From IMG/VR virus record IMGVR_UViG_3300020109_000029, positions 1 to 51,875 of that record: a DNA stretch of 51,875 bases, one strand, 5' to 3'. This document shows, piece by piece, positions 4,181-12,539 of the stretch. The DNA comes from a virus. Its lineage: Duplodnaviria > Caudoviricetes. Position 1 is the stretch's first letter. Every line of letters begins with the position of its first letter. Under the pieces are notes generated by a model. The model was not told the origin of the DNA. It searched no databases and was given only the letters and a program-made list of their open reading frames with translations. The position numbers and the translations under genes are program-made.

Positions 4181-4911
4181 GCGCCCAGCCCATCCATCTG
4201 GCGAACGAGCCTAGCCCCTTCGACGCCCTGCGGATCGACATCGACGATCTGCTGCTAGAAGCGAAGAACTGGTGCGACGGCGAGGCCGCCAAGACCCAGG
4301 AGCAGGTCGACGAGATCGCGCGCCTGATCGACGAGCTGAACGACCGCGCCAAGCTGCTCGACGCCGAGCGCGTAGCGGAGAAGAAGCCACTCGACGAGCA
4401 GATTGCCGCCATCCAGGACCGCTACAACGTCTACCTCGCCCCGCTGAAAAACAAGACGCCGGGCAAGGTGCCGATGGCGCTGGACGCCCTCAACGCGGCT
4501 AAGCGTCCGTTTCTGCTGGCGAAGGAGGCCGAGCTAGAGGCGGCGCGGGAGAAGGCCAGGCTGGAGGCCGAAGAGAAGGCCCGCGTTGCCCGCGAGGCCG
4601 CACAAGCCGCCGCCGCGAACGACCTTGCGGCGCGCGAAGAGGCGGAAGCCAAGATCGCCGAGGCCGAAGCCGCCGCGACCGCCGCTCGCGTGGCGGATCG
4701 TCAGAAGGCCCACGCCCACGGTGGGGGGCGCGCTCATGGCCTTCGCACCCGCGTCGTGGCCGAGATCACCGACCTCAACGCGGCGGTGAAGCACTACTGG
4801 ACCGAAGACCCCAAGCCGTTCCGCGAACTGGCTCAGCGCCTCGCCGATCAGGACGCGAAGGCCAACCGTCGTGTGGCGGCCGGCGTCACCTTCCGGGAGG
4901 AACGGTATTGA
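4177..4911 (+). CDS. Coiled-coil protein of the recombination module
   Basis: Long Ala/Glu/Lys helical ORF, coupled. Confidence 0.75.
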   Translation: MSAQPIHLANEPSPFDALRIDIDDLLLEAKNWCDGEAAKTQEQVDEIARLIDELNDRAKLLDAERVAEKKPLDEQIAAIQDRYNVYLAPLKNKTPGKVPMALDALNAAKRPFLLAKEAELEAAREKARLEAEEKARVAREAAQAAAANDLAAREEAEAKIAEAEAAATAARVADRQKAHAHGGGRAHGLRTRVVAEITDLNAAVKHYWTEDPKPFRELAQRLADQDAKANRRVAAGVTFREERY

Positions 4912-5330
4912 GCCGCAACCTCCTTCGCCTCACCCCTGGCGCGCGCCAGCAGGCCCACGCGTGGGTCGAAAAGGCGCTCACCATGTGGTCGCCCGGCAAG
5001 CCCTGGCTGCTGGAGATACGAGAGCCGAAGCGCACCGACGAACAGAACGCCGCCATGTGGGGGCTTCTGGCGCAGATCACGAAACAGCGCCCGGTGCACA
5101 ACGGCCGGCAGATGAACTCTGACCTCTGGAAGGCGGTGTTCATGGACGCCTTAGGCCATGAGGTGGATTACGTCGGCAGCCTGGACGGTAAGCGGGTGTT
5201 TCCGCTCGGGCATCGGTCGTCGCACCTCAACAAGGCGCAGATGTCGGATCTGATCGAGCTGATGCTCGCGTGGTCCGCAGAGCAGGGCCTGACCATCGAG
5301 CACTTCGACGACGAAAGGCTGGCCGCCTGA
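4908..5330 (+). CDS. ninB: NinB/Orf family recombination protein
   Basis: KRTDEQNAAMWGLL, WKAVF, SSHLNKAQMSDLIELM. Confidence 0.88.
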   Translation: MSRNLLRLTPGARQQAHAWVEKALTMWSPGKPWLLEIREPKRTDEQNAAMWGLLAQITKQRPVHNGRQMNSDLWKAVFMDALGHEVDYVGSLDGKRVFPLGHRSSHLNKAQMSDLIELMLAWSAEQGLTIEHFDDERLAA

Positions 5331-5754: not shown

Positions 5755-6195
5755 ATGACTAGCCCCCATTCCGGCCAGACGGCCTCCATAGGCGACCACC
5801 AACTTTCTTTCACCAACAGAAGAGGAGCGGAAAGCCACGACCCGCGCGCGAAAGCGTCTGGGTGTGATCAGGGAGGGGGCGTCGTCACGCTTGGCGGCTC
5901 CCCCGCTGTTCAGACCGGCGTGGGCTTCCTTCTGAGGTCCGCCCATTCTGCACGCGGGACCGGCGCGATCCACGGCCACACCTACGAAGTCGTTTGCTGG
6001 TTTCCGGCGGGAGACGACGCTGAAGAGTTGCAGGCGAAGTGCGAACGGTCTTGCGCGGACCTAGACCACGCAATCCTTCCGGAAGAACTGGCCTGGGCTG
6101 AAGCCCTGGTCGCCGAAATCATGCGCCGCACCGGAGCAGAAGACGTCGAGATCAGACGGCCCCTTGAGCGTCTTTACGCGAGGCCGCGCCGATGA
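5755..6195 (+). CDS. QueD/PTPS-like T-fold protein (start uncertain)
   Basis: SAH...HGHTYEV...LDH..L...AEAL; the Cys of the CxxxHGH motif is absent. Confidence 0.75.
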   Translation: MTSPHSGQTASIGDHQLSFTNRRGAESHDPRAKASGCDQGGGVVTLGGSPAVQTGVGFLLRSAHSARGTGAIHGHTYEVVCWFPAGDDAEELQAKCERSCADLDHAILPEELAWAEALVAEIMRRTGAEDVEIRRPLERLYARPRR

Positions 6196-6966
6196 CCGAC
6201 CTCCTGTTCTATCCCGGCACCCACCAGGTCGGCGACGCCAAGCACTTCGACCGCGTCTGCATCAGCCGTAATCGCCTCGTCGGGCGCAAGAAGCCGGTCG
6301 AGTGCGACGATGTCCTGCTCGACTGCGCCGGGTTCACGACCATCGAGAAGCACGGTGGCTATCCGCACCCCCCGGAAGAGTGGGCGCGCGAGGTGCATCG
6401 CCTGAACTCGAACGGCATCCTCAAAATCACCGTCGTCGTGGCACAGGACTACATGTGCGAGCCCTGGATGCTCGCCAAGACCGGCCTGACGATCGAAGAC
6501 CATCAGCGCCTCACAATCGGCCGCTTCGACGCAGTCATTGCCGAACTGCACCGTCTCTACGATGGGCCGCCGCCCTTCGAGGTCATGCCGGTTCTGCAAG
6601 GCTTTGCGATCAGCGATTACCTTCGCCATATCGAAATGTATGGTGACCGCCTCACCCCCGGCATGTGGGTTGGCGTCGGCTCTGTCTGCAAGCGCCAGGG
6701 CGACCCGGCGATCATCGAGGACTTGCTTCTAGCCATTGCAGGAGTGCGGCCGGACCTCCGGCTGCACGGCTTTCGGTGTGAAGCTGACGGCACTCCGCAG
6801 TCCCATCGTTCGCCGGCTGCTCTACAGCGCGGACAGCATGGCCTGGTCCTTTGCAGCTCGGAAGCAGGGCCGCGACGGCAACGACTGGCGCGAAGCCAAG
6901 GCGTTCGAGGCGCGCGCTCTCGTCCCCAGTCGCGAGCCCGAGCAACTGCGATTGTTCTCGGCATGA
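6192..6966 (+). CDS. TGT/DpdA-like guanine transglycosylase, split by a +1 frameshift at 6771-6774 (257 aa if joined)
   Basis: LLDCAGF, QDYMCE, PVLQG, VGVGSVCKR, LHGF | GVK...SADSMAWS continues in the +1 frame. Confidence 0.8.
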
Positions 6967-7012
6967 TCTCCACCAACAAACAGGTGGCCCCGCAAAGCGG
7001 CGGAGAGGGGCG

Positions 7013-8530
7013 ATGAAACCCAAGCTCCTCGACCTTTTCTCAGGCATCGGCGGCTTCAGCCTGGGCCTTGAGCGCGCAGGCTTCGAAACCGTGGCGTTTT
7101 GCGAGATCGCACCGTCGCCTCGTCACCTTCTGGCGACTCACTGGCCGAACGTCCCCTGCTTTGAAGACATCACGACGCTGACCGCTGAAATGGTTGGGCC
7201 TGTCGACGCAATCTGCGGCGGCTTCCCCTGTCAAGACATTAGCTTCGCCGGGAAGGGGGCGGGTTTGGCCGGCGAGCGCTCCGGCCTCTGGAGAGAATAT
7301 GCACGATTGGTTCGCGAGCTACGACCCCGCTACGTCATCGTGGAAAACGTCGCAGCGCTCCTTGGTCGAGGACTTGGAGACGTTCTCGGAGACCTGGCCT
7401 CGCTCGGGTACGATGCGTGGTGGGATTGCATACCAGCTTCCGCCGTTGGCGCCCCTCACCGCCGCGACCGGCTCTGGATTGTTGCCTACCCCGGAGGCGA
7501 GCAACACGAAGGCTACGGCGATGCGCTCCGGAGGGAGATCGCCGCGGGACTTTCTCGCGCCGCTGCCCTCGTGGCCCACACCGACGGCAATGGACGGCCG
7601 GCGCGGGAACAAGCCCCCGAGACCGTGGGATGCGGGAGTCTATTTGCCGCAAGCGGTAGCGATGTGGCCCACGCCGCGAGCGACAGACGGCTCAAAGGGC
7701 GGTCCAAACCAGAGAGGCAGCAAGGGCGACCTTGCCCTGCCGGCGGCGGTGCATCGCTGGCCTACTCCGACGTCCAGCATGGCGAAGGGGTCGTCTCCGG
7801 CGTCACTGACGAGGAAGGACGGACAGGACCGTTCGAACGATCGGTTGGACCACGCCATGCAGGCCCGCGAGGGCAGTGGTCAGCTGAACCCGACGTGGGT
7901 CGAACTCTTGATGGGTTTTCCCGCTGGCTGGACGAAACCTATGGAGACCCGGAAGCCCATAAGGTAATATTGGCTTATGCCAATGCCTCGGAGGCCGGAC
8001 CCCGAAAAGCACTGCGAGACCTGCGGGACCGCATTCGTGCGGAAGATGACCGGCGGGCGGCTGGAGGACCGGTCAGTGTTTCTCCGTCGGAGGTTCTGTT
8101 CGCTTTCGTGCGCGAACACGCGCGGCGAGCTGAAGAAGGGCTCACATCACTGGAGGGCGCGGCGCCACCGTCTGACGGCGTGCGAAGCCTGCGGGGAACG
8201 AAGGGCGCTGCACGTCCACCACTGCGACCAGGACGAGACGAACAACGAGCCGGCGAACCTTCAGACCCTCTGCAAGTGGTGTCACAACTTCTGGCACGCC
8301 ACGCAGAAGCGGCTTGGATTGCCTATCGCTGGCCGGATGCCCGCGCTTCGCAGCCTTGGGTCCACGGATGGGAAGACGGGGTCGGCCGCGTAGCGACCGC
8401 AGTGCCGGCCCGCGTCGACAAGCTCCACGGGCTGGGAAATGCCGTGGTTCCACTCATCCCGGAAATCCTAGGCAGAGCCATCCTAGCCGCACAGGAATCC
8501 ATCACCACCCCCCAATCGAGAGCAGCCTGA
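7013..8530 (+). CDS. C5-cytosine DNA methyltransferase, large (alpha-like) polypeptide
   Basis: Motifs I (DLFSGIGG), IV (GGFPCQDIS), VI (ENV), VIII (HRRDRLWI), X (LGNAVVP); no motif IX in this frame. Confidence 0.92.
   Translation: MKPKLLDLFSGIGGFSLGLERAGFETVAFCEIAPSPRHLLATHWPNVPCFEDITTLTAEMVGPVDAICGGFPCQDISFAGKGAGLAGERSGLWREYARLVRELRPRYVIVENVAALLGRGLGDVLGDLASLGYDAWWDCIPASAVGAPHRRDRLWIVAYPGGEQHEGYGDALRREIAAGLSRAAALVAHTDGNGRPAREQAPETVGCGSLFAASGSDVAHAASDRRLKGRSKPERQQGRPCPAGGGASLAYSDVQHGEGVVSGVTDEEGRTGPFERSVGPRHAGPRGQWSAEPDVGRTLDGFSRWLDETYGDPEAHKVILAYANASEAGPRKALRDLRDRIRAEDDRRAAGGPVSVSPSEVLFAFVREHARRAEEGLTSLEGAAPPSDGVRSLRGTKGAARPPLRPGRDEQRAGEPSDPLQVVSQLLARHAEAAWIAYRWPDARASQPWVHGWEDGVGRVATAVPARVDKLHGLGNAVVPLIPEILGRAILAAQESITTPQSRAA
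7194..7967 (+). CDS. Nested +1-frame methyltransferase small (beta-like) subunit with TRD-like repeats and motif IX (start uncertain)
   Basis: Four (W/L)PTP repeats at 7482, 7572, 7665, 7758; LNPTWVELLMGFPAGWT resembles motif IX. Confidence 0.8.
   Translation: MGLSTQSAAASPVKTLASPGRGRVWPASAPASGENMHDWFASYDPATSSWKTSQRSLVEDLETFSETWPRSGTMRGGIAYQLPPLAPLTAATGSGLLPTPEASNTKATAMRSGGRSPRDFLAPLPSWPTPTAMDGRRGNKPPRPWDAGVYLPQAVAMWPTPRATDGSKGGPNQRGSKGDLALPAAVHRWPTPTSSMAKGSSPASLTRKDGQDRSNDRLDHAMQAREGSGQLNPTWVELLMGFPAGWTKPMETRKPIR
7977..8393 (+). CDS. HNH endonuclease nested inside the methyltransferase ORF (+1 frame)
   Basis: CETC..FCSLSC; CEAC...HVHHCDQDETNNEPANLQTLCKWCH; TAAGGT upstream. Confidence 0.82.
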   Translation: MPMPRRPDPEKHCETCGTAFVRKMTGGRLEDRSVFLRRRFCSLSCANTRGELKKGSHHWRARRHRLTACEACGERRALHVHHCDQDETNNEPANLQTLCKWCHNFWHATQKRLGLPIAGRMPALRSLGSTDGKTGSAA

Positions 8531-11306: not shown

Positions 11307-11329
11307 GACCGTTTCTGTCGTGCCTGTAT

Positions 11330-11344
11330 GTTCTCCCTTCGTTC
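11330..11344 (+). promoter_or_regulatory. Alphaproteobacterial LexA (SOS) box upstream of integrase
   Basis: GTTC-TCCCTTC-GTTC, exact GTTC-N7-GTTC, ending 10 bp before the ATG. Confidence 0.75.
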
Positions 11345-11354
11345 CGAGGGAGAC

Positions 11355-12539
11355 ATGGCGCGCAAGGTCGATCGACTTAACTGGAAGCAGGTCCAAGGCC
11401 TGAGGGAGCCGGGGCTTTATGCCGACGGCGCCGGCCTCTACCTGCGCATCGATCAGACCGGCTCACGCCGATGGGTCTGGATCTTCCAGTATGCGGGTCG
11501 GCGGCGGGAAATGGGCCTAGGAAGCGCCGACGGGCAGAAGTTGGCCGAGGTCCGCGAGAAGGCCGACGAGGCGAGAGCGGTGCTGAAGCAGGGTCTCGAC
11601 CCGATAGCCGAGCGCCGGAAGGCCAACGAGCCACCGCCGGACAATCGGTTCAGCACCGTGGCGACGGCCCTCATGGACAACCTGCAGGAAGGCTGGAAGT
11701 CGCCGAAGCAGCGAGGGCAGTGGGAGGCCTCCCTCAAGCAGCACGCGCCGAAGATCTGGGATGCAGACGTGCGGGCCGTTGATACGGAGATGGTCCTGGC
11801 TGCGCTCAAGCCGATCTGGTCGAAGAACCGGGAGACCGCTTCTCGGGTCAGGTCGCGGATAGAACGGGTGCTGAGCGCGGCCAAAGCTAGAGGCCTGAGG
11901 GAAGGGGAGAACCCGGCCCTCTGGCGCGGACACCTGGACCAGCTATTGACCCGCTCGAAGCAGGAGAAGGGTCACCATGCGGCCATGCCCTATGGCGATG
12001 TGCCGGGGTTTCTCGTGCGCCTGGCTGAGCGCGACAGCATATCGGCCAATGCGCTCCGCTTCCTGATCTTCACCGCCGCTCGGTCTGGAGAGGTGCGTGG
12101 CGCCACGTGGGACGAGATCGATGGAGACCTATGGGTCGTGCCGGCCGAACGTATGAAAGGCGGCCGAGAACATCGCGTGCCGCTGAACGAGGGCGCGCGG
12201 GGTGTCCTGGACGAGATCGACGAGACTCTGCGGCGAGGCCTGATCTTTCCCGGGCTGAAGGGACCGTTGTCCGACATGGCCTTGGCGATGGTGATGAGGA
12301 AGCTGGGAGTGGTTAACGCCACGCCGCATGGGTTTCGGTCGGCCTTCAAGGACTGGGCCGTCGATTGCACGTCGTTTTCCGACGAGATCAGCGAGGAGGC
12401 CCTGGCCCATACCGTCGGGTCGAAGGTCCGCCAGGCCTACCGCCGCGGCTCGGCCATGGAGAAGCGCCGGCTCCTGATGGCGGCATGGTCGGATCATTGT
12501 TTCGGCCGGGTCGGCAACGTCGTTCAGTTGAAAGCCTAG
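11355..12539 (+). CDS. int: Tyrosine integrase, P4-like
   Basis: Arm-binding N-terminus (DGAGLYL..GRRREMGLG), TAARSGE, MKGGREHRVPL, HGFR, LAH, AY. Confidence 0.97.
   Translation: MARKVDRLNWKQVQGLREPGLYADGAGLYLRIDQTGSRRWVWIFQYAGRRREMGLGSADGQKLAEVREKADEARAVLKQGLDPIAERRKANEPPPDNRFSTVATALMDNLQEGWKSPKQRGQWEASLKQHAPKIWDADVRAVDTEMVLAALKPIWSKNRETASRVRSRIERVLSAAKARGLREGENPALWRGHLDQLLTRSKQEKGHHAAMPYGDVPGFLVRLAERDSISANALRFLIFTAARSGEVRGATWDEIDGDLWVVPAERMKGGREHRVPLNEGARGVLDEIDETLRRGLIFPGLKGPLSDMALAMVMRKLGVVNATPHGFRSAFKDWAVDCTSFSDEISEEALAHTVGSKVRQAYRRGSAMEKRRLLMAAWSDHCFGRVGNVVQLKA

Follow-up and report, generated by a model that had tools for sequence, protein, structure and literature searches.

Organization of the mini T-fold and DpdA genes

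The stretch of DNA analyzed here, hereafter the window, is the whole of the IMG/VR virus record IMGVR_UViG_3300020109_000029 (Caudoviricetes), a sequence of 51,875 bases with 64.7% G+C and a CheckV estimate of 100%. At positions 5755–6966, two genes are encoded in tandem (Table 1), one for a small QueD-like protein of the T-fold type, hereafter designated the mini T-fold, and the other for a DpdA-like protein related to tRNA-guanine transglycosylase (TGT). Since a tyrosine integrase is encoded at 11328–12539 (phrog_1), the virus is a temperate phage or an excised prophage; its host is probably alphaproteobacterial, and the run records for the window sequence lead to lake-water metagenomes. The interest of the pair is at the level of the family, in which a small and conserved gene of QueD type accompanies DpdA-like genes of three families; the copy in the window looks damaged.

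An earlier note, made from the letters alone, had recognized a T-fold protein with SAH and HGHTY motifs but no catalytic Cys, joined through ATGA to a TGT/DpdA-like protein and lying directly upstream of a DNA methyltransferase gene. All these features were found again: “RSAHS” and “IHGHTYEV” are present in the T-fold open reading frame (ORF), Thr occupies the position of the catalytic Cys, the stop codon of the mini T-fold gene overlaps the ATG of the DpdA gene, and the ATG of a C5 cytosine methylase is located 46 nt downstream of the DpdA gene. As to the partner, ORF 6192–7016 as it stands matches the Pfam DpdA family PF23859 with 100 bits (residues 24–198; cut-off 27), and the +1-frame ORF 6736–6966 matches the next part of the same model (E 5e-4 alone). 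When TTTC is read as one step, a DpdA of 257 amino acids is obtained, which gives 132.3 bits on PF23859 and 230 bits on phrog_1279 (E 5e-68). The clade motifs D..GF, QDxMCEP, HQR, PVxQG, GVGSVC.RQ, and HGFGVK (six proteins aligned) are all present in this read-through product. The replacement of DSGGF by DCAGF, singled out in the note, is indeed there (“LLDCAGFT”) but is no meaningful departure, as the clade conserves only the Asp and Phe without exception (6/6), and the other five proteins have Ser where the window protein has Cys. The window DpdA is unremarkable within an already known family. The TGT model PF01702 matched nothing in the window at E ≤ 0.001, in a search of which the control matched 14/14 genomes.

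The note had also stated that no folE, queE, or queC accompanies the pair, and this holds for the entire record: no match was found to QueC, TGT, FolE, radical SAM/QueE, or Vut_1/YhhQ, and nothing in the record exceeded the threshold of Pfam PTPS, the mini T-fold itself included. In eight other phage records with a mini T-fold, six of which are at least 90% complete, no QueC, radical SAM/QueE, or FolE was detected (8/8), and the mini T-fold is the single PTPS-like match in each. The mini T-fold/DpdA module thus stands alone in 9/9 phage records. With no folE, queE, or queC beside the pair, any 7-deazaguanine would therefore be made from host precursors, as had been proposed; the same dependence on the host is reported for DpdA-only phages (PMC6884629, PMC8306585).

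Table 1 Features of the mini T-fold/DpdA locus and its immediate neighbours in the window
Feature	Position	Strand	Basis
NinB	4908–5330	+	Pfam NinB, E 1e-22
Cys-rich ORF	ends 5746	+	ORF list
Mini T-fold ORF, from nearest in-frame ATG (frame open from 5692)	5755–6195	+	ORF list, sequence
Shine-Dalgarno-like AGGGAGGGGG (putative)	5870–5879	+	read from sequence
Mini T-fold conserved core, 98 aa	5899–6192	+	alignments, family conservation, AlphaFold2 model, hhalign
ATGA overlap (DpdA ATG 6192–6194; T-fold stop TGA 6193–6195)	6192–6195	+	sequence
DpdA N-terminal 194 codons, to invariant His-Gly-Phe	6192–6773	+	Pfam PF23859, alignment, G+C at third codon positions (GC3) 0.82
DpdA frameshift site, one extra T	6771–6774	+	read-through translation, DNA alignment with three intact homologues
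DpdA C-terminal 63 codons, +1 frame (GVKLTAL...YSADSMAWSF...), stop 6964–6966	6775–6966	+	Pfam, GC3, homologues
C5 cytosine DNA methyltransferase (context, outside the module)	7013–8530	+	PF00145, E 8.8e-40; phrog_363

Predicted fold and active-site residues of the mini T-fold

An AlphaFold2 model of the mini T-fold was built on 25 sequences (pLDDT 90.3, pTM 0.80), and the predicted structure is the beta-beta-alpha-alpha-beta-beta T-fold of the PTPS superfamily, which bears out the fold proposed beforehand. The best match of the model in the PDB by Foldseek is Escherichia coli QueD (4ntk; TMq 0.73, prob 1.00). By VIA-align, PTPS/QueD chains (2dj6, Z 10.4; 3d7j, Z 9.7; 3qn0, Z 9.3; 2g64, Z 8.8) were superposed over 82–91 residues with root-mean-square deviations of 2.1–2.8, and other T-fold enzymes trailed at Z 6–7.

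The hhalign alignment with E. coli QueD pairs H16 with H16, H25/H27 with H31/H33, D56-H57 with D70-H71, and E68 with E86, and places Thr21 of the window protein at the position of Cys27; the QueD signature CxxxHGH with its catalytic Cys is absent from the window protein. Among 122 members of the family, the His triad for zinc is nearly invariant (H16 in 121, H25 in 121, and H27 in 122), and E68 (120), R87 (120), E90 (112), D56 (107), and H57 (106) are also conserved.

The beginning of the protein in the window is irregular. No ATG, GTG, or TTG is present between 5755 and the conserved N-terminal “QTGVG”, ahead of which the homologues of 95–101 aa begin by 2–5 codons, and no canonical start codon follows in frame after the Shine-Dalgarno-like sequence. 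The periodicity of GC content with codon position is absent from the 48-codon extension at 5755–5898, and these first 48 codons are probably outside the functional T-fold protein.

Distribution of the mini T-fold and its association with DpdA-like proteins

A total of 16 mini T-fold relatives of 95–136 aa were identified by word-index search, and an exhaustive profile search of 1.84 billion cluster representatives (50% identity) raised the number to 257 with E ≤ 1e-3, of which 157 have E ≤ 1e-10. The length is about 95–105 aa in nearly all of them. On a tree of 38 members and six QueDs, they form one clade (100/100), and the mini T-fold is a distinct family. When the window protein was compared by tblastn with 50,697 phage records, Caulobacter phage DMCA was the only match; its mini T-fold (gene 035c) has been labelled “6-carboxytetrahydropterin synthase” by the depositors. 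No PHROGs family was matched by the window protein (E ≤ 0.1) or by the DMCA homologue (E ≤ 0.01). The homologues are borderline on Pfam PTPS, with 22.5 bits for DMCA, 19–25 for others, and 14–22 for the members in the phage records.

Loci of the family were collected from a named phage, IMG/VR, one genome per species, and JGI metagenomes, of which the last were scanned with alignment A2, the diverse alignment A3 being too variable. The set comprises 42 loci, the window included, with some redundancy (L029 is the same as L007, L009 and L037 are close to L008 and L036, respectively, and L045–L056 are one cluster). A DpdA-like gene is located within about 410 nt of the mini T-fold gene in 37 of the 42, and three classes of partner were distinguished. 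The phrog_1279 DpdA of the window recurs in one other locus, L013 (2/42); a phrog_887 protein of 226–241 aa is found on either side of the T-fold gene in 30/42; and a phrog_15826 protein of 202 aa with an “IDNGGF” motif is found in 5/42. No DpdA-like neighbour was found in the other five (L040, L055, L043, L027, and L028). Two of these, L040 and L055, are truncated by the contig end and L043 is short; L040 and L035 have identical T-folds, and in L035 a phrog_887 gene lies upstream.

Among the members of the phrog_887 family are the DpdAs of Salmonella phage 7-11 and Pantoea phage MED16, both DpdA-only phages reported with dADG, the deoxynucleoside of 7-amido-7-deazaguanine (PMC8306585). Homologues of the phrog_15826 protein carry the annotation “DpdA-like tRNA-guanine transglycosylase” in Mycobacterium and Arthrobacter phages, and its nearest named Atlas cluster, at 0.91 and as a lead only, is DUF6610, which has been linked to DpdA4 by Cui et al. 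(PMC10516641). Comparison of the three classes with each other by hhalign, on shallow alignments, gave only 0.4–1.0%, none significant; the local alignments centre on a common D-[NS]-G-[AG]-F motif. Because this profile comparison is not significant, the DpdA-like status of phrog_887 and phrog_15826 rests on PHROG and depositor annotation, with homology to the 7-11 and MED16 DpdAs as a further basis for phrog_887. A sequence search of the PDB gave no match for the window DpdA, the phrog_15826 protein, or the phrog_887 protein. Judged from their sequences, the three partner families look unrelated to one another. On the T-fold tree, changes of partner class were counted as 7, 2, and 2 for the three DpdA classes. 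Such repeated change argues against a specific complex between T-fold and DpdA and fits a metabolic link better than a lock-and-key relationship.

Neither queE nor queC lies near the pair in the window, and queE is located directly upstream of the mini T-fold gene in 2/42 loci, L027 and L028, on what appears to be a bacterial chromosome. The neighbours there are a polyhydroxyalkanoate (PHA) depolymerase and an ABC transporter, and no QueC remnant was found upstream of queE. The members from L027 and L028 are nested among DpdA-linked members with support of 84–90, below the starred level. The depolymerase neighbour, PhaZ, puts L028 near Sphingomonadales-like genomes, and the queE–mini T-fold arrangement was found in 0/401 sampled Alphaproteobacteria and 0/401 sampled Sphingomonadales. 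Strong matches to the family are rare in cells, one in each of these two samples; both are prophage-like Novosphingobium loci in a genome that was the search centre or its relative.

Fusion of the mini T-fold with a domain of predicted QueF-Like-type fold

In three of the 150 listed representatives (P0046, P0094, and P0157), the mini T-fold is fused, in either order, to a domain of 80 aa in which one Cys is invariant (“CPNN”) and an “AHHHGV” motif is present. This domain also exists as a free-standing protein of 79–100 aa (109 matches; A4, P0170–P0278), in some cases in Paraburkholderia or Massilia records. Its model (pLDDT 97.7) has a clean beta-beta-alpha-alpha-beta-beta fold, for which the best match is archaeosine synthase QueF-Like, likewise an enzyme of 7-deazaguanine pathways, including the thioimide intermediate 5jyx (TMq 0.72, prob 1.00), with GTP cyclohydrolase I and QueF next. 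As far as the modelled fold indicates, the fusion ties the mini T-fold to 7-deazaguanine chemistry without settling its step. No copy of the domain was detected in the window or in the fetched loci (tblastn, E ≤ 1).

Relationship of the mini T-fold with QueD

In profile comparison by hhalign, the mini T-fold family gave 95.7% with E. coli QueD and 96.8% (E 2.5e-10) with one alphaproteobacterial QueD of the Cys-less type described below, the latter alignment running through a C-terminal “R-P” motif. The mini family and QueD share the T-fold, the zinc triad, the Asp-His pair, and a Glu in the “PTSE” region. The mini T-fold is however shorter (about 98 aa, against about 118–123 aa for QueD), with two deletions, one in the loop that bears Cys or Tyr in QueD and one in the hairpin after strand 2. 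It adjoins DpdA-like genes in phages instead of lying in queCDE operons; in L027 and L028 it occupies the queD slot after queE.

The weak matches of the family profile in alphaproteobacterial genomes are QueDs of canonical length. The gene follows queE directly in six of eight such loci, and QueC is encoded just upstream of queE-queD in all five genomes searched. The catalytic Cys is missing from six of these eight QueDs, five of which have Tyr and one Asn in its place. Glu110 of E. coli QueD is replaced by Arg in all six, followed by Pro in three, and R87 of the mini T-fold, usually as R-P, is aligned to this Arg. The Cys-less QueD is the sole PF01242 match in 4/5 genomes, and all five also have QueC and TGT. 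From this gene content, the Cys-less QueDs appear to be the working enzyme in those alphaproteobacteria. The published QueD signature is CxxxHGH (PMC5041015), and it would miss such QueDs because Tyr or Asn replaces Cys27. These observations on QueD concern the loci L064–L070 (genomes G189, G195, G369, G254, G072, G123, and G114).

A different step and a different base, suggested in the earlier note as possible for a QueD without the Cys, do not follow from its absence, since Cys-less QueDs are themselves found in queE-queD arrays in six of the eight alphaproteobacterial loci.

Frameshift in the DpdA gene

The DpdA gene of the window lacks one intact reading frame. The read-through product is colinear from end to end with intact homologues at 54–64% identity, including those of Rhizobium phage RHph_TM3_3_3 (63%) and Sinorhizobium phage phiLM21 (gp25, 60%) and, as the third aligned over the full length, that of IMG/VR locus L013; its C-terminal part is 60–69% identical to the homologues. 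In the DNA alignment, GGC TTT C GGT of the window stands against GGC TTC GGN in 3/3 intact homologues, and the extra T, at about 6772–6774, falls within the invariant and most conserved motif, HGF|GVK. The shift is supported by the GC3, with 0.79 for the shifted frame against 0.59 for the unshifted tail. The shift costs DpdA its last 63 residues, the C-terminal quarter, including the conserved “ADSMAWSF”, the Asp of which would correspond to the TGT nucleophile. Because DpdA is broken, this copy of the module may modify nothing.

Programmed frameshifting was considered and set aside, as only TTT and no slippery heptamer is present and the homologues are single-frame.

It seems doubtful that errors of sequencing or assembly account for both the frameshift and the missing start codon, with a module that is in fact intact and active. 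The record is derived from a metagenome, the extra base extends a short T run from TT to TTT, and the end-to-end alignment of the read-through DpdA would suit an artefact; however, a run of three bases is not a typical site of indel errors. The Logan assembly of the probable source run is identical in sequence, with 0 gaps and a mean depth of 15.3, although it is not independent of the record because it is made from the same reads. The only other run that reaches the region, represented by contigs only, ends at 6768, short of the frameshift site. The break in DpdA is probably real in the source population and, taken together with a T-fold gene that has no normal start codon, it suggests that the module copy in the window is probably inactive or decaying.

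The DpdA of Microcystis phage Mwe-JY25 (L076:2992–3762) also leaves the consensus soon after HGFGVK (LLQRGQHGMVVRRSK versus LYSADSMAWSFAARK), perhaps through a frameshift of its own close to the site of the one in the window.

Possible role of the mini T-fold

The folds, the membership in families, the conserved gene order, and the lack of further pathway genes are established by the analysis, whereas the reaction of the mini T-fold and the identity of the inserted base are inferred, as follows. The locus would be a two-gene module for 7-deazaguanine modification of DNA in a temperate phage. The product of the first gene, the mini T-fold, would convert dihydroneopterin triphosphate of the host to 6-carboxytetrahydropterin (CPH4), the first committed step to preQ0; FolE, QueE, and QueC of the host would complete the synthesis; and DpdA, the product of the second gene, would insert the product by exchanging guanine in phage DNA for the 7-deazaguanine base. 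We give about even chances to the mini T-fold being such a minimal QueD-type enzyme, feeding host-dependent synthesis of preQ0 for DpdA. This role is favoured because the family profile resembles that of QueD, because Cys-less QueDs occur in operons, and because the mini T-fold gene stands in the queD slot in L027 and L028.

A number of observations weigh against a QueD-type role. With respect to the protein itself, the position of Cys27 is variable among the 122 members (the commonest residues are Thr in 20, Glu in 19, and Gly in 19), and E. coli QueD without this Cys is reported to be inactive (PMC10516641). About 14 residues are deleted relative to QueD, and the mini T-fold clade is set on a long branch apart from the QueDs. 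When scanned directly, the window protein gives 14.3 bits on Pfam PTPS PF01242 (cut-off 22.4, E 0.04) and 13.5 bits on the NCBIfam QueD model TIGR03367 (cut-off 89.25, E 0.07). With respect to gene context, the queE-linked cases are two contigs of one lineage, seen as contigs only, and adjacency to queE equally fits an enzyme that uses the QueE product, 7-carboxy-7-deazaguanine (CDG). Among the phages found, none has the mini gene as the QueD of a complete phage-borne pathway.

Alternatively, the mini T-fold could be a tailoring enzyme, the zinc site of which acts on a 7-deazaguanine intermediate of the host and provides DpdA with a different base, for instance by decarboxylation of CDG, as proposed for DpdL, or by hydrating or otherwise altering preQ0. 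We regard this as rather unlikely, and are similarly hesitant about the wider proposal of a new zinc enzyme acting on host CDG, preQ0, or CPH4, the product of which would be the base inserted by the three DpdA families. The unconserved Cys/Tyr position, the near-invariant Arg87 and Glu90 as new features, and the separate long-branch clade would all suit a changed activity, but the zinc and pterin residues of QueD are retained, and the Arg in place of Glu is common to QueDs encoded in queC-queE-queD operons. Likewise, the mini gene in L027 and L028 adjoins queE, which makes CDG, but its place there is the queD slot. There is a precedent in DpdL, a Cys-less QueD paralogue beside DpdA3 (PMC10516641); the mini T-fold, however, lacks profile similarity to DpdL and the DpdL motif, and DpdL phages carry FolE, QueD, and QueE, none of which is found in mini T-fold phages. 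The fused QueF-L-like domain, which should bind preQ0, and the unexplained dADG of DpdA-only phages (PMC8306585), which may lack the mini gene, are also consistent with tailoring. On the whole, with a family that resembles QueD and not DpdL and with the queD slot on two contigs, the different step and different base envisaged in the earlier note are less supported than a QueD-type role.

It is very improbable that the mini T-fold is a non-enzymatic binding or decoy protein, for example sequestering preQ0 or mixing into host QueD/QueF oligomers so that queuosine synthesis is held back and preQ0 is left for DpdA: the protein is smaller than any characterized COG0720 enzyme found, it lacks the general base, and T-fold proteins function as oligomers with active sites between subunits, but the zinc ligands, Asp-His, and Glu are almost always kept (n = 122), as expected of a catalytic site, and the mini gene takes the place of queD after queE in the context of a bacterial chromosome.

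If the QueD-type role is true, the mini T-fold would be perhaps the smallest CPH4 synthase, and one without the “essential” Cys; together with the Tyr/Arg-type QueDs, it would call for revision of the signature by which QueD is annotated, and otherwise the mini T-fold makes something new. If instead the tailoring role is true, an undescribed DNA modification, or a new route to one, would be present in many temperate phages, mostly metagenomic, with a second unstudied protein alongside and sometimes fused, the 80-aa QueF-L-like mini T-fold. Caulobacter phage DMCA (strain CB15) is cultured and has an intact pair, and the question is thus testable at the bench.

Neighbouring genes

The GC3 is lower (0.69) in the T-fold core at 5899–6192 and in the methylase gene at 7013–7600 than in NinB (0.87), the upstream ORF (0.84), and the N-terminal part of DpdA (0.82), which could point to a recent gain of these genes or, in the case of the methylase, to coding in two frames.

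The methylase gene is overlapped by a +1-frame ORF at 7194–7967 (257 aa), which encodes WPTP repeats and LNPTWVELLMGFPAGWT and matches phrog_1008, “DNA methyltransferase” (E 1.4e-36). The two frames of this region both match one place in Acinetobacter phage vB_AbaM_ABMM1 (L074:1002–1916; 42% G+C), where the gene annotated as methylase can be read without a stop through about 300 codons of the +1 frame, while the third frame is full of stops. The alternative-frame product matches 193 phage records at E ≤ 1e-8, and the methylase locus is a candidate for a conserved dual-coding gene. In addition, an HNH endonuclease ORF (7977–8393; phrog_1271, E 9e-13) is located in an alternative frame inside an insertion of about 150 aa in the methylase frame. 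The insertion separates “AEPDVGRTLDG” from VGRVATAVPARVDKLHGLGNAVVP, two segments that adjoin each other in the methylase of ABMM1, and could represent an intron or a mobile HNH insertion.

Comparison with known phage systems

A QueD paralogue beside DpdA is known in DpdL of Cellulophaga phage phiST, for which decarboxylation of CDG has been proposed (Cui et al. 2023, PMC10516641). DpdL and the mini T-fold have in common that they are small QueD paralogues without the Cys and that a phage gene of the DpdA family lies next to theirs. The profile similarity of the mini family to phiST DpdL is however as low as 0.5% (hhalign, E 0.11), and the DpdL motif LxxxHRHxF is absent, with GAIHGHTY in the window against LSLNHRHLF in phiST; at position 26, Gly is found in 108/122 mini T-folds and Arg is outside the three commonest residues. 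DpdL goes together with phage-encoded FolE, QueD, and QueE, without QueC, whereas none of these three enzymes was found in the window or in 8/8 related records. On these sequence comparisons the mini T-fold family is not DpdL.

A further comparison is with the DpdA-only phages, such as 7-11, MED16, and Mycobacterium phage Orion, which likewise have DpdA without genes for preQ0 synthesis; the commonest partner of the mini T-fold belongs to the DpdA family of 7-11 and MED16. In the window, by contrast, a second, QueD-like gene is coupled to dpdA. The DpdA-only phages form the largest group of 7-deazaguanine phages and also the least understood one; the origin of their base and the low level of modification are unexplained (PMC6884629, PMC8306585). 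A compact and widespread QueD-family gene associated with three DpdA families provides a handle on the origin of the base. In full-text searches and in main texts, we found no account of DpdA being accompanied solely by a minimal QueD-family gene; supplementary gene tables may list such genes as QueD.

The group of PF23859/phrog_1279 DpdAs, to which the window DpdA belongs, includes the rhizobiophage proteins 60–63% identical to it and also takes in the “queuine tRNA-ribosyltransferases” of mycobacteriophages. This type is presumably DpdA1. A PAPS-reductase-like gene lies just 3′ of the phrog_1279 DpdA gene at L013:1996–3048 (phrog_424, E 1e-17) and at L002:5300–6109 (depositor annotation). 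A “VUT family protein” is annotated next to a phrog_887 gene in Escherichia phage vB_EcoD_Opt-719. In phiLM21, the gene after DpdA, gp26 (L001:4777–5304), matches Pfam Vut_1 (E 5e-14), the family of the preQ0 transporter YhhQ. The DpdA of phiLM21 is therefore paired with a Vut_1/YhhQ-like transporter and the window DpdA with a T-fold protein, and the combination of DpdA with Vut_1 is another way of pairing DpdA with precursor supply.

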